From Eledone cirrhosa (lineage: Eukaryota): 64,000 bases of DNA. This document shows positions 29,145 to 38,705 of the stretch, one piece after another. The DNA is taken from NCBI GenBank assembly GCA_964016885.1, contig OZ024744.1, forward strand, positions 55,180,001 through 55,244,000. The letters are read 5' to 3'. Position numbers and translations under genes: made by a program. Within the stretch, counting starts at the first letter, position 1. Every line of letters begins with the position of its first letter. The notes beneath the pieces were generated by a model that was not told the origin of the DNA, did not search any database, and was given only the letters and a program-made list of their open reading frames with translations.

Positions 29145-30647
29145 TATTGCCCTTCAGGCTATAACAGAGGAGTTCAAGACCGGCTGCCCCTGGGAACTTC
29201 TATACGCAGATGATCTAAGCTCATAGCTGAATCGATGGCTGAACTAGAGAAGAAATTCCAAACATGAAAACATGGCCTAGAATCAAAAGGCCTTAAAGTT
29301 AACTTGTCTAAGACTAAAGTTCTAGTATGTAGGAAGGAAAATAGGGCACAGGTCCCCTCCAGGAAATGGCCATGCTCAGTGTGTAGGAAAGGAGTAGGCA
29401 GAAATTCCATTTTATGTCCTAAATGCAAAGTATGGGTGCATAAAAGATGTAGTGGGATCACAGGTAAGCTATCTAAGAACGTAGATTTTATATGTGGCTC
29501 AGGTGCAATAAGTAGCAAGTGCCCACAGGATACTAGTTCCTTCTATTGCCCAGATGGTTCTATAGAAATAGTGGACACCTTCCGTTACCTGGATGACAAA
29601 ATCAGCAGTGGTGGAGGGTGCTCAGAAAGTACAGTAGCCAGAGTTCAGAGAGCTTATACCACTATTGACCGCTAAATGTTTCTCTCTAAAAATGAAAGGC
29701 AGGCTGTATGATGCCTGCATACGAACAGCTATGTTACATGGCAGTGAGACCTGGGCATTGTGTGCAGAGGATCTGCGCAGATTGGAGAGGAACAAAGCAT
29801 GCATGCTCCGCTGGATGTGTAATAGTAATATACGTGAACAGCAAAGCATAAATGAACTAAGTGAGAAATTAGGTATAAGAGGGATCAGATGCTGTTTACT
29901 TGAGAGAAGACTATGTTGGTATGGTCACATGATGCGCATGAAAGAGGATAACTGTATAAAAAAGTGCAGGGCGATCAAAATTGACGGAAGTTACGGAGTA
30001 GGCAGACCCAGAAAAACCTGGGACGATTTGATAAATTCTGACCTTACACACTTACACCTCTCTAAGACAATGTCACTGGACCGAGATCTTTGGCGCTACA
30101 CAGTTATACAGAAGACCCGCCTTGCCTGAGTACAAAGCGAAACCTACAGTCAGTAGGCACCTCTAAATCAAATATACACCTCCATGCCACTACCCCAACT
30201 CCCCCACCCAACCCCATCAACACCACCCCTTTCTCTGTAAAGTTATGTTGGTACCACAACATCCAGTCCAAAACAAATGAGGTCGTGTAGGTGTCACAAC
30301 AAAAAAACACAGTCCACGCTGTAATGTGGCCGTGTAGGTAACACAGTAAAAAGTTCCCAGTCCACACTGTAAACGTGGTTGGTGTTAGGAAGGGCATCCA
30401 GCCGTAGAAAACCCACCAGACAGTCCTATAAGAGCAAGACAACCAATCTTGCCTCAAGTGGGAAAATTCCCGTCTAAACCCATGCTAGCGTGGAAGATGG
30501 ACGTTAGATGATGATGATGATGATGATGATCCAGCCATAGAAACGAAGCCAAAATTAGTTGTGTATGAGCGAAACATGGTCGTCCAACCTGATCTCTCAC
30601 AAATGGACAGCCCGTCCTACCCATGGTAGTAGGAAAATGGATGTTAA

Positions 30648-32635: not shown

Positions 32636-33310
32636 TCCTCAATGCTACTGTTGAACAAACGGATGATGATAGTCGTCAAAAACAAAATGTAACATAAGTA
32701 AGGCCATTTGCTTGCAAGGAAGTATCGGTAGAGGGTTGGATGCCATGCTTTGCAGCATTGAGTTACGCCCCTTTATGATCTGAGTTCAAATCCCGCTGAG
32801 GTTAACTTTGCCTTTCATCCTTATGGGGTCGATAAAATAAAATACCAGTTATGCACTGGGTAATTGCTGGCTTTGTGCCAAAAGTAGAAACAATTATTAT
32901 TATAAAAAAAAAAAAAATCATCTCAGCTGGTGTTATTTGGTTAGGCATGGCCTGGGTCAAAACCTGGCCGAAACCTATGAAAGTTATCAAAGCTATCAGA
33001 AATAAGTTTTTTGTTTTTTTTAAGTGGATAAGAGGATAAATCCATTCTTGGAGAGTACTCGAACTCAGATCATACAAGGAGGTAACTCTATGCTTCAAAG
33101 CATGGCATCTGATCCTCTACCGATACTGCCAATCCACCGCCTTCATATCTTATAATAATAATAATGAAAATATTGTGTACAGTGCTCAGGTGCACTACAA
33201 CTCATCAAAAAGTGTATGTATAGTACATAGGGTAATGTACAAACGTCCAGAAAATGAACAGTGCATGAGTCATGATATACACATGTGTGCATGTGTATGG
33301 AAGGGGTACA

Positions 33311-36248
33311 TCAGGTGTAGTTTTGGCGAATTTCAGGAAGCATGAGGGTTTTAAAGGATGCAGTGTCTCGGCAGCTAACAACTGATGCAAGCAGTTTGTT
33401 CCATGCTTCAGTAACTGTAAGCGTGAAAAAATGTTTCCGAAAGTCATGGGAGCTGTGCTGTTTTCTGATTTTGTAGGCATGTCCACGTATGTTAGACACA
33501 TGGAGATCAAAAAGGTGCTCAGGGTTGTTGTTGGCGAGATGGTTAATAATTTTGTGGGTGTTTACCAAGTCCATTGCCAGACGTTGGAGCTTCAATGAAT
33601 CCATGCCCAGGGAAGCAAGGCGTTCAGAGTATGGTAGGTGTCTGTTGGAGGGTATGCGCTTGGTTGCACATCTCTGAACAGTTTCCAGGAGGTCAATGTT
33701 CTGAGCAAGATAGGGGTTCCAAGTGTGGTCGTACGATAGCTGTATACAGCTTTAAATAGATGGCTGGAGAGCGACTAACAAAAGTCTTGCTGAATGATGC
33801 CAAGACACCCTCGGCCTTCTTGACAATCTTAGAGACATGCTTTGTCCAACGAAAATCGCTGCTGACAGTAATGCCCAGGTCACGTTCACAAGAGGACTTC
33901 TTGATATCAGTGTTGTGGAGGGAATATGTGGACGTTGGATTTTTCCTCCCAAAATGCATGGTAGTACACTTGTCCACAGCCAGCTTCAGTTGCCAGTCTG
34001 TGATCCATTACTGCATTGTGTCCAGGTCTGATTGTAGGAAAGAGTTGTAGATTTCAGGATCAATCCTTTTGATTTCAAAGTACAGCTTGATATCATCTGC
34101 ATATTTCAGTACCATGGTATTCTTTAAGTTGGCATCTATGTCATTAATGTATGCCACAAACAAAATGGGACCAAGAACAGATCCCTGTGGTACACCAGAT
34201 GACATCTCATATGGTGAAGAATGCTGTCCTAGAACCGTGACTACCTCTTTTCGGCTGAGAATGAAGGATTTCAACCAGTTAAAAAGATCATCCCTCACAC
34301 CCATTGCAGAGAGTTTCGCCATAAGTCTTTTGTGTGGCACAGAATTAAAAGCCTTAGCGAAGTCAAGGTAAACAACATCCACCCATGAGCCACTGTCAGT
34401 GATCCGGGTACTGTCGTCAAGGAACTCAATAAGCTGCTGGAGTTAGGGATAAACCAAATTGTGAGGCTGTGAGAACTCCAGAAGTTCCAAAGTGTTTCCC
34501 TGACACAGGATTCCATCAGTTTGGCCATACAGCTAGTAAGACTGACTGGACGATAGTTGACAGGTGACATGCAGTTGCCCTTTTTGAACAGGGGAATGAC
34601 ACTGGCAGTTTTCCACTGCTCCGGAGTAGCACCATTGTGGAGACAGTATTGAAAGAAAGAAAGCTGGTGCAAAAGGAAGTACCCGCCACGTTTGAGAAGC
34701 AGGTATGTAACACCATCAAAACCAGGGGAGGCATAGTTGCGCTTATTCTTAAGGTGACGTCACAACATTTCAGGTGTAAATTCCGTAGTTGTTATGGAAT
34801 TTGATGTTAGAGATGGTGGAGATGGTACATTCTGGTTTTCAACAGTAAAAATGCTTGCATAGCACTCAGCAATGAGTTTTGCGCATTCTTTGGGATCGTC
34901 AGTGATCTGGCTTGTGTGGGGATTGCGAAGAGGACCAACTGGAGAGTGAGGTCTCTGCTTTGAAATAACATATTTCCAGAACACCTTACTGTCAGGATTG
35001 GTTGCTATGCACTGTTCAAATTCAAGCACTGCCTTTTTTGTCACTTGCTTGAGATGGTTGGAAGATTTATTCCACTTTTTTCTGTTGGCATCTGATTTAT
35101 GCAGTTTATATTCCCGTTCAGCGTTCCAACGTTCTTTCCTGGCAAGTCGGACTGCTGAAGTTTCCCAAAATGCACTTTTGGGGTGGATTTTTTTCTGCTT
35201 ACATGGCACCGATGCTGCACATGTTATCCATATTGAGTCCAGGATGCTTTGGAGTATAGTGTTCACATCTCCAGAGTTATAGAACTCATGCCAGTTTGGG
35301 TGCTGTAGCTCAGTGCAGTACAAGTTCCAATCTGCTTTCTTCCAATCAAAGCAAGCAGATTAGAGATGGTTCTGGTTTTTGTTGCTCCCCGCAAGAGCCA
35401 GATTGGCAATGATCAGAGTCGCCTAGAGGTTCCTCAGTAGTACAACTGATAACCACTTCAGGAATAGTGGTGAAGATCAGGTCCAAAGTGTTGTCACCTC
35501 TTGTTGGAGAGGTGACTACTTGTGACCAGTTTGAGTCCAGCACTAGCTCAAGGAAATCGTTTGCACTTTGTGGCCAACGAAAGGTTTCCCAATCGATCTC
35601 AGGATGATTGAAATCACCTGCAATAAACACATAAGTGGCTGTTTTCCTGTAATGTGGCCGTGTAGGCAACACAGTAAAAACCTCCCAGCCCCACACTGTA
35701 AATGTGGTTGGTGTTAGGAAGGGCATCCAGCTGTAGAAAACCCGCCAGACAGTCCTATGCGAGCAAGACAATCACTCTTGCCTCAAGTGGGAAAACCCCC
35801 GTCCAAACCCATGATGCAAGCGTGGAACACGGACGTTAAACGTTGATGATGATGATGTGTGTCCTGATGGTAGTTTGGGGGGCGATAAACAACACCAAGC
35901 AGAAGTGTTGACATGGTCACAAAAAAAAACTTCTTGTGATTCATTCAAATCAATGCAAGGAATTACCGAAAAGTTTGAACGAACGTAGACCATCACACCA
36001 CCACCACAGCGATTAATGCGGTCCTTACGGAACAGGTTGTACCCAGTAATGCTGAAAACCCCATCACAGAGTAAGGAATGTGCCCATGTTTCCCTGACTG
36101 TGATGAAGTCAGGGTTGATGCTTCTGACGTAGGAGTTAAACAGATGTATCTTGTTGCATAAACTGCGAGCATTTATGGACAACAATTTGTACCCTGCTTG
36201 CAGTTTATGATGGTGTGTAGAGGATGGCAGGTTGTTCTGGTTTAGTTT
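33311..36248 (-). pseudogene. LINE ORF2 (endonuclease-reverse transcriptase), disrupted
   Basis: Consecutive ORF-track fragments 35772-36185, 35346-35771, 34760-35323, 34295-34672, 34008-34382, 33693-33977 and 33311-33604 reproduce APE-RT in order. Confidence 0.9.
35647..35858 (+). mobile_element. RTE-type 3' tail fragment nested inside the CR1 APE domain
   Basis: Closely matches 30319-30530, ends in (GAT)n, and interrupts the APE between the CxxPP and AGDFN motifs. Confidence 0.88.
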
Positions 36249-36940
36249 CCCAGAGTTGTTGTAGTTTTTTCATTGCCAGTTATTGTGGGTAGAGCACACT
36301 CAGACCAGCTGGTATCTCTCTTCCACGTTTCACCAGCCTTAACAAACCTCCAGATCTGCCCATCATCACGCAGACTAAAACTTTCATATAGTGCTGAGTT
36401 CCGATTCAAGGAAGCTGCAGCACGTAGCTTTGGACGTACATTGGGTGGTATGCCTGGGCATGTTCGGAAAGTAATCCGATTTTCATGCCCAGCTTTAACA
36501 GAGGCCAGATAATATGAAATTGCCTCAGCGGGGTCCAAAAAAGAAAGCCTGATGAGTCTGGGTTTTGGACCAGGTCGACCAAGGCGGAGAGCACTCTTTG
36601 TGGGAACACAGCCTAGATCTTTAGCTGAGCTGGCAGCAAATGCCTTGTCCTCTGGTTCCCCAATGGCAATTACTTCATGGGTAGCAGATTTTGCGGTCTT
36701 CTCAGTGTACCCAGATATGGCAAAAGGTACAGGGATATTCTTTAGCAAGGCATTCCGATAAGACCCCTCATTGTGGGGTCCTACCCAAATGCCTGCTTTT
36801 ATTCCTGTTACTTCCCTTCTTAAAGCAGAAATCATTTGTTGTAATTCTGCAAAATCTGTACTGATCGATTGATGTTGTTGTTGTTGCTGCTGTTGTTGTT
36901 GATGTTCCTCCATGGGAATAGTAGGGGAAGACACAGTCAT
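36242..36940 (-). CDS. LINE ORF1 protein, 232 aa (polyQ, coiled-coil-like segment, RLGR..KPRLI motif)
   Basis: Open ORF immediately upstream of the APE domain. RLGRPGPKPRLIRLSF is typical of CR1/L2-group ORF1 RRM-like regions. Confidence 0.75.
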   Translation of the reverse strand: MTVSSPTIPMEEHQQQQQQQQQHQSISTDFAELQQMISALRREVTGIKAGIWVGPHNEGSYRNALLKNIPVPFAISGYTEKTAKSATHEVIAIGEPEDKAFAASSAKDLGCVPTKSALRLGRPGPKPRLIRLSFLDPAEAISYYLASVKAGHENRITFRTCPGIPPNVRPKLRAAASLNRNSALYESFSLRDDGQIWRFVKAGETWKRDTSWSECALPTITGNEKTTTTLGN

Positions 36941-36979
36941 CAGTTGTTGGTGTCGAGATGTACTATGGTTTAAATTTCA

Positions 36980-38039: not shown

Positions 38040-38705
38040 TTTGCAGTGTGTTTGTCGTTATGCAATAATACAAAAGATCCACCATCCAATGTGCACGGGT
38101 TGAAACATACATCTCGTATGCACCACTTTCCCTTATCCACCCCTTCTATACACCTCCCATGCCTTTACATTCCACCCACACTAGCCCCCAGTTGACACTG
38201 TAACAGGTTTGTTTTGTTGTCACGACAAAAACATCCAGCTCACACTGTAAAATTATCGTTTCAGTGCCACAACAAAAAGTACCCAGTCAATATAGTAAAT
38301 GTGGTTGGGCATCCAGGTGTAGAAATGAAGTCAGAAACAGTTCTGTATGAACAAGAAATGGTCACCTGACCTTACTTGTCTCAAAAGGTAGCAGAAGCTG
38401 TCTACTGCTTCTATGGAATCCCCTAAGAATTTGATAGTGTTTGCTTACTGCTTCTGTGCAATGGCCACATGTAAAACCTACATTCTTAGCTAACTTACCT
38501 GAGATCCCACTACATCTCTGGTGTACCCATAGTTTGCATTTGAAACAGAGAATGTAATTTCTACCTATGCCTTTCCTGCACACTAAGCAAAGTAATTTTC
38601 CCGAGGGGATAAAGGCCCTGTTTTCCCTTGAACTTATAGGACCTTAATCTTCATTAGATTGACTTTAAGATCCTTTGAATTTAGGCCATGCTTCCAGTTT
38701 TGGAA
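38040..38705. mobile_element. RTE tail (+, ~38040-38380) joined to an RTE PHD fragment (-, ~38385-38705)
   Basis: ORF 38362-38583 (-): CRKGIGRNYILCFKCKLWVHQRC...CGHC. Confidence 0.8.

Follow-up and report, generated by a model that had tools for sequence, protein, structure and literature searches.

The window analysed in this study, a 64,000-nucleotide stretch of the Eledone cirrhosa genome (contig OZ024744.1, positions 55,180,001 to 55,244,000), carries on its minus strand, at 36964-33150, a copy of a retrotransposon whose two open reading frames, ORF1 and ORF2, overlap at a junction that has the layout of a -1 ribosomal frameshift site (Table 1). A domain of the apurinic/apyrimidinic endonuclease (APE) type followed by a reverse transcriptase (RT) in ORF2, dispersed copies with variable 5′ ends and an (ATT)n tail identify the element by its sequence as an APE-type non-LTR (long terminal repeat) retrotransposon, or long interspersed nuclear element (LINE), which from its motifs and tail we take to be CR1-like and which likely belongs to the CR1 lineage. 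The window copy is itself not functional, being 5′-truncated at ~36964, disrupted by an insertion and left with an ORF2 in pieces; matches to the Pfam families PF03372, PF14529 and PF00078 were nevertheless obtained on these pieces as well as on L033, a copy with intact frames in which Exo_endo_phos starts at residue 25 past the junction heptamer. ORF1 ends on the minus strand with CTG GGA AAC TAA, such that GGGAAAC (36251-36245) is read as G_GGA_AAC directly before the stop codon, while the -1 frame, open past a TGA at 36272-36270, reads GKLNQNNLPSSTHHHKLQAGYKLLSINARSLCNK and then enters the APE domain, its first methionine being codon 87 (35993). A heptamer of the form X_XXY_YYZ thus lies in the zero frame inside the ORF1/ORF2 overlap, as in a -1 frameshift site. 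The heptamer, the open -1 frame closed upstream by TGA and the lack of an ATG before the first endonuclease motif had all been pointed out in an earlier sequence-only reading of this DNA, and were borne out when the minus strand was read again. Away from the junction, two intact copies contain ~0.004 canonical in-frame heptamers per codon, from which we calculate a chance of ~2-6% that one falls in an overlap of 5-16 codons; a single junction is therefore suggestive, and the case rests on conservation.

A DNA search for the family returned 1318 candidates, of which 40 were scored and 30, including the window copy, were fetched; 28 of these carry GGGAAAC and 2 GAGAAAC, with an extra A upstream in one copy and a 3-nt deletion downstream in another. 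The complete element is ~4.9 kb long and comprises an ORF1 of ~410-457 codons, counted from the first Met, and, in intact copies, an ORF2 of 942-944 codons from the heptamer. Three subfamilies were distinguished, namely A, to which the window copy belongs, the younger A′ (~96% identical to A) and B (83% identical), and GGGAAAC-TAA was found at 104 of the 116 distinct junctions among all fetched loci of the three. Subfamilies A′ and B, which are 83% identical, both retain it, and a search pattern that left the site free gave 469 matches, with GGGAAAC counted by eye in 94 of the first 100 listed. The sequence-only reading had asked whether the heptamer, the frame offset and the missing ATG are conserved; all three proved to be family-wide across these junctions and the intact copies, and the -1 layout is thus that of the family and not a peculiarity of the window copy.

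Neither a usable AUG nor a continuous frame gives access to ORF2. Among 20 longer copies fetched, 14 have an ORF2 that is open for 940-944 codons from the heptamer, the other 6 being broken earlier, and in every one of the 14 copies with an ORF2 of at least 940 codons the first Met lies either at codon 87, as in 7 of them, or at codon 68, as in the other 7. An AUG in the +1 frame at 36273 precedes the heptamer in subfamily A, and would fall into the ORF2 frame if the A-run were shorter; exact patterns matched the out-of-frame form in 105 copies and the in-frame form in 2, while in A′ this AUG is followed by an immediate stop and in B it is missing. It can thus be rejected as the true start of ORF2 and is, judging from these patterns, probably not used. 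In two B copies, L067 (G000:C4:367255884 region) and L096 (G000:C3:19220800 region), the two ORFs run together over 1381 codons, and these copies represent natural mimics of the fusion predicted below. They carry different indels in the A-run before the heptamer and are therefore independent accidents, which rules out an inherited single fused frame; a search for longer homologues, which is weak evidence, returned only a 405-residue ORF1. An in-frame ATG or a single fused ORF in the family had been named in the sequence-only reading as outcomes that would speak against it, and on both counts the results came out in its favour. The endonuclease part that precedes the first common Met is under purifying selection, as A′ and B differ over codons 22-86 by 22 synonymous and 6 non-synonymous changes (omega, the ratio of non-synonymous to synonymous change, 0.05), and 20 and 7 in a second pair (omega 0.07), against an omega of 0.13-0.19 for the remainder of ORF2. 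This low omega argues that the N-terminal endonuclease is made and that translation enters upstream of the first AUG. The linker encoded by codons 1-21 has an omega of 1.6 and is unconstrained as protein, yet its frame stays open. Before the heptamer the -1 frame is open for 14 codons in A′ and for just 3 in B, the latter confining any -1 shift to ~16 nt.

The ORF1 product allowed the site to be followed into distant relatives. Octopus vulgaris has a relative that shares 76% identity along part of the protein. The C-terminal half of a family member's ORF1 was modelled with the fold of L1 ORF1p, with an RNA recognition motif (RRM) and C-terminal domain (CTD), at a pLDDT (predicted local distance difference test) of 85.7; the top 9 Foldseek matches were all human L1 ORF1p, including 2yko (best E 7e-5), whereas sequence searches of the PDB were uninformative. 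The last 20 residues, which hold the Gly-Asn (GN) encoded by the heptamer, were modelled with a pLDDT of 44-55. At the N-terminus there is a Cys/His pattern but no Pfam PHD match; PF00628 was detected in 3 of 45 homologues at E<=0.1, and a PHD is present in atlas neighbours. A search with the C-terminal 213 residues against 1.84 billion cluster representatives gave 53 matches, of which 8 that stopped short of the terminal W-x-R/T-x(2-4)-W motif were dropped and 45 kept, the median pairwise identity among the aligned homologues being 34%. GN is present in the tail after the Trp motif in 35 of the 45 (shuffle mean 5.9, maximum 16 in 20,000 shuffles), and the remaining 10 have EN (5), KN (4) or GK (1) (shuffle mean 2.5, maximum 8); NG outside GNG was found in 0 of 45 tails. 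The dipeptide sits in an otherwise unalignable tail, 3-33 residues downstream of the final conserved Trp and 0-18 short of the stop, which follows GN directly in just 6 of 35 homologues. It is preceded by S (19), Q (8), A (3), P (2), V, E or T (1 each); residues lacking a G-ending codon (F, Y, C, H, N, D, I), which make up 16% of the tail, occur there in 0 of 35 cases (p ~0.002) and one position further upstream in 7 of 35. GN is followed by Gly, Glu or Asp in 22 of 35 tails, and by one of these or Ala in 23 (P0003-P0053), so that a G would mostly come after the heptamer and Gly-Lys-Arg would open the -1 frame, as in the distant element L110 (936-945). The homologues are related by descent, and the counts accordingly reflect long conservation and not independent trials. 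Four further proteins reaching the tail were obtained in a later profile search, three of them with GN, as well as one partial match from Capitella teleta.

DNA of a distant element was sought in metagenomes, where query P0001 gave none and query A2 one locus, L110, and in viral and prokaryote collections, which gave none. ORF1 of L110, an element that looks L2-like from a motif, reads ATG ACG GGA AAC GAC, placing G_GGA_AAC at 936-942 with the stop 17 codons later; its -1 frame opens at 927, 3 codons before the heptamer, and leads to an APE domain, codon 123 being the first Met. Compared with subfamily B, its ORF1 shows 32% identity over 133 residues; for ORF2 the identity is 24% over 521. In contigs of other organisms the site was kept amid other changes, with heptamer and stop unaltered in X2, which is ~82% identical to B over 180 nt, and the site retained in the loose end of X5. 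The loose ends of runs X1, X2, X3, X5 and X7 further indicate that organisms A and B (labels separate from those of the subfamilies) hold another, more diverged subfamily with a different ORF2 linker, from which no junction was recovered. When P0003, P0006 and the L110 APE were used as queries against the host's own genome, this LINE family alone was recovered among the loci examined. Gly, Lys and Glu are chemically unlike, yet their codons GGA, AAA and GAA all fit slippery heptamers, and the site is, as judged from the protein trace in 45 of 45 tails and from the DNA of L110, conserved beyond coding need in distant relatives.

Taken together, these comparisons make it probable that a programmed -1 frameshift at G_GGA_AAC yields an ORF1-ORF2 fusion in a minority of ribosome passes, and the fusion proposed in the sequence-only reading is supported, as a prediction, by the GN trace and by L110. 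The heptamer is among the most shift-prone for mammalian ribosomes (PMC5009743, available text). In the mechanism that we envisage, tRNA-Gly and tRNA-Asn would shift their pairing from GGA AAC to GGG AAA, with a product that reads ...Leu-Gly-Asn/Lys-Leu-Asn-Gln..., while the majority of ribosomes would halt at UAA and release ORF1p. The rare fusion would place endonuclease and RT on a coiled-coil ORF1 subunit that joins ORF1 trimers on the element's own RNA, and the frequency of slippage would set the ratio of ORF1p to fusion, as in Gag-Pol. Our guess is that the pause would be provided in this family by termination at the adjacent UAA, perhaps together with a queue of ribosomes at a predicted hairpin that starts at +36.

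Several observations weigh against this interpretation, and most of them concern the stimulator. In keeping with the sequence-only reading, which had seen no obvious pseudoknot downstream, neither a hairpin nor a pseudoknot was found at the canonical 5-9 nt in the family or in L110 by a simple stem search and nested folding, which a weak or protein-dependent stimulator may escape; moreover, the window from +3 to +65 belongs to the least structured of 180 windows (rank 113-180, z -0.8 to +1.7). Pairing of the post-heptamer sequence with the 3′ end of the element was unsupported in 6 copies, the best tail duplex ranking 13-229 of ~477 windows with nothing shared. Neither the adjacent UAA nor the +36 hairpin is general among relatives, and since the stop directly follows GN in so few homologues it is not a general stimulator. 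Between A′ and B the nucleotides around the site do not stand out in conservation (10-23% of windows reach the same level), one of the four further proteins, P0065, has none of GN, KN, EN and GK, 44 or all 45 of the homologue tails were read as protein, with L110 the sole source of distant DNA, and a conserved in-frame CUG in fair context lies 20 nt before the hairpin. The hairpin itself is strong in A′ (z -6.7 and -7.7), moderate in A (-3.6 and -3.8), and weak in B (-1.7), and L110 does not have it; at +36 such a structure is too distant for the usual block of the ribosomal entry channel and hence for a classical stimulator. One of its pairs was scored in 117 copies as A/T in 32 A and 16 A′, G/T in 2 A′, G/C in 49 B and T/C in 7 B, with 8 others unreadable or odd; the change from A-U to G-C between A and B would be a single event in a window chosen post hoc and is not proof of structure. 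It may be speculated that the hairpin holds a leading ribosome about one footprint ahead, or that it aids initiation at the CUG at +14.

The latter possibility belongs to the most serious of the rival explanations, according to which ribosomes terminate at UAA and reinitiate without AUG at the in-frame CUG 14 nt on (36230), helped by the hairpin 20 nt further downstream, to make a separate ORF2p, the heptamer being incidental or minor. The CUG, codon 8 of ORF2, is shared by A, A′ and B, an unstructured spacer followed by a hairpin is present, and L110 has a GUG 9 nt past its ORF1 stop; furthermore, SART1 needs an RNA structure downstream for its ORF2 to be initiated (PMC3708506), and mammalian LINEs are considered likely to initiate ORF2 independently of AUG (PMC5009743), as stated in the available parts of these two papers. 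Near-cognate codons are, however, common by chance, the hairpin fades in B and is lacking in L110, and reinitiation leaves unexplained why all 45 tails contain heptamer-compatible dipeptides, set at varying distances from the stop, with a bias in the preceding residue, for which reasons we regard it as unlikely. The same tails could be explained if Gly-Asn belonged to the C-terminus of ORF1 as a motif of the protein and ORF2 were reached by internal entry or by splicing to an upstream AUG, and the frequency with which Gly, Glu or Asp comes next (22 of 35), together with the restriction of known distant codons to L110, would fit such a motif. GN is, however, exchanged for KN, EN and GK in a tail of low confidence and variable position, it was encoded as GGA AAC after G wherever DNA was read, and no joint into the start of ORF2 was present in the contigs examined, which being contigs only are weak evidence against splicing; we therefore hold this explanation to be highly improbable.

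Correction at the RNA level, by which polymerase slippage in the upstream A-run would supply a few transcripts with a fused ORF or an in-frame AUG, is viewed as marginally less credible still. The A-run, 10-20 nt upstream of the heptamer, is indeed prone to indels in genomic copies, as seen from the two independent 1381-codon fusions and the 2 copies with an in-frame AUG, but it is merely six nucleotides long, interrupted in A′ and absent in L110, and the fused and in-frame-AUG copies are rare and did not spread. That the offset and the missing AUG simply reflect decay of the window copy, which is truncated and broken, or of a non-autonomous lineage, is scarcely conceivable given that young copies with an intact ORF1 and a 942-944-codon ORF2 share the junction, as do the three subfamilies and L110; decay as the cause of the offset is refuted by the 105 versus 2 pattern counts, the intact copies and the 104 of 116 junctions. 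Returning to the -1 frameshift, we lean, with less assurance than for the event itself, towards a wider view in which a deep group of invertebrate CR1/L2-type LINEs with this ORF1 in common would make endonuclease-RT only as a fusion, via G_GGA_AAC and its variants and without a classical RNA stimulator. The signal would then travel with the ORF1 module onto very different ORF2s, and the enzyme would be built into the ORF1 trimer in what amounts to a Gag-Pol strategy of non-LTR elements.

Table 1. Features of the LINE copy and its ORF1/ORF2 junction (window coordinates)
Feature	Position	Strand	Basis
Slippery heptamer G_GGA_AAC in the ORF1 frame (candidate shift site)	36245..36251	-	sequence; GGGAAAC+TAA at 104/116 sampled family junctions
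ORF1 stop TAA, adjoining the heptamer	36242..36244	-	sequence
TGA closing the -1 (ORF2) frame upstream; limits the possible shift window	36270..36272	-	sequence
Out-of-frame (+1) AUG with a 22-codon ORF; AUG at 36273-36271 overlaps the TGA	36205..36273	-	sequence
In-frame CUG (codon 8 of ORF2), shared by A, A′ and B; candidate reinitiation start	36228..36230	-	sequence
Predicted hairpin with arms 36209-36195 and 36171-36157, at +36 to +88 relative to the heptamer	36157..36209	-	folding
First in-frame AUG of ORF2, codon 87, within the endonuclease domain	35991..35993	-	sequence
ORF1 3′ part: Gln/His-rich linker, coiled coil, RRM, CTD and low-confidence tail ending Leu-Gly-Asn-stop; without the PHD-like N-terminus	36242..36964	-	
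ORF2: linker, APE endonuclease and reverse transcriptase, -1 frame, broken here	33311..36251	-	
Insertion of ~206 bp in the endonuclease region, missing from aligned sibling copies	35650..35855	.	alignment
3′ untranslated region (UTR), terminating in (ATT)n	33150..33310	-	

Other parts of the element and of the window gave rise to some further observations. The ~206-bp insert resembles a dispersed short repeat in the flanks of loci L008 and L015 and is probably SINE-like (short interspersed nuclear element). In the ORF1 linker (window 36860-36910; also L040, L041 and L192) there are Gln/His repeats that expand, along with duplicated units of PATVSSP(T/A)IPVEE that differ in number from copy to copy. 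At the 3′ end, the A′ copies L191-L197 have a second, partial 3′ UTR beyond the first (ATT/GTT)n tract, which suggests a duplicated or recombined tail, and L043 combines a family A body with a B-type 3′ UTR. Fragments at window positions 29638-30129 (plus strand) and 38362-38643 (minus strand) resemble another retroelement, with a presumably RTE-like C-terminus and a Cys-rich piece.

How the ORF2 of LINEs is translated is a long-open question, the cases of L1 and SART1 being described as reinitiation. A fusion such as that predicted here would, if true, alter the picture of the LINE particle, of cis preference and of the ORF1:ORF2 ratio, and would explain AUG-less ORF2s that annotation treats as truncated, while the site offers a candidate -1 shift without a classical stimulator for study. 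Frameshifting may already have been suggested in earlier work on CR1-type ORFs that overlap. A literature search, with most subscription papers and Repbase reports outside its reach, found no description of a conserved slippery site at CR1/L2 ORF1/ORF2 junctions, and the available text of PMC13405545, PMC10294476, PMC11835228 and PMC5006619 was silent on the matter. The closest relatives by architecture are the CR1/L2 LINEs with a type IIC ORF1, defined by a PHD and an L1-ORF1p-like coiled coil/RRM/CTD and found in CR1 subgroup 5 and L2 subgroup 6 (PMC4120745, available text); the present family resembles them in its Cys/His-rich, possibly PHD-like N-terminus, L1-ORF1p-like C-terminal half, APE-RT ORF2 and (ATT)n tail, and the RRM and CTD of the type are present in the predicted fold of its ORF1. 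The word 'frameshift' is missing from the main text of PMC4120745. The sequence-only reading had contrasted the site with studied LINE ORF2s, said to rely mostly on reinitiation, which holds for L1 and SART1 but not for Dictyostelium TRE5-A and TRE3-A, as these APE-type non-LTR elements require a -1 frameshift for ORF2 according to a figure legend in a review (PMC5911963). The TREs differ from the present family in belonging to another host kingdom, in targeting tRNA genes and in carrying a zinc finger in ORF2; for Paramecium elements, a +1 frameshift or reinitiation has been suggested (PMC5405496, available text). A known mechanism would operate in a setting for which we found it stated only for the Dictyostelium TREs. 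Human L1 and silkworm SART1 are comparable in having a bicistronic LINE RNA with rare ORF2 expression, but their ORFs are separated by a spacer or joined by a UAAUG stop-start with AUG, whereas those of the present family overlap in -1 without AUG (PMC5009743 and PMC3708506, as far as their available text extends). From viral and retroviral gag-pol frameshifting the family differs in the lack of a stimulatory structure found at 5-9 nt and in being a non-LTR element without a capsid, and it shares with those systems the heptamer class, the -1 overlap and a downstream polymerase frame without a start codon of its own (PMC5009743, available text).

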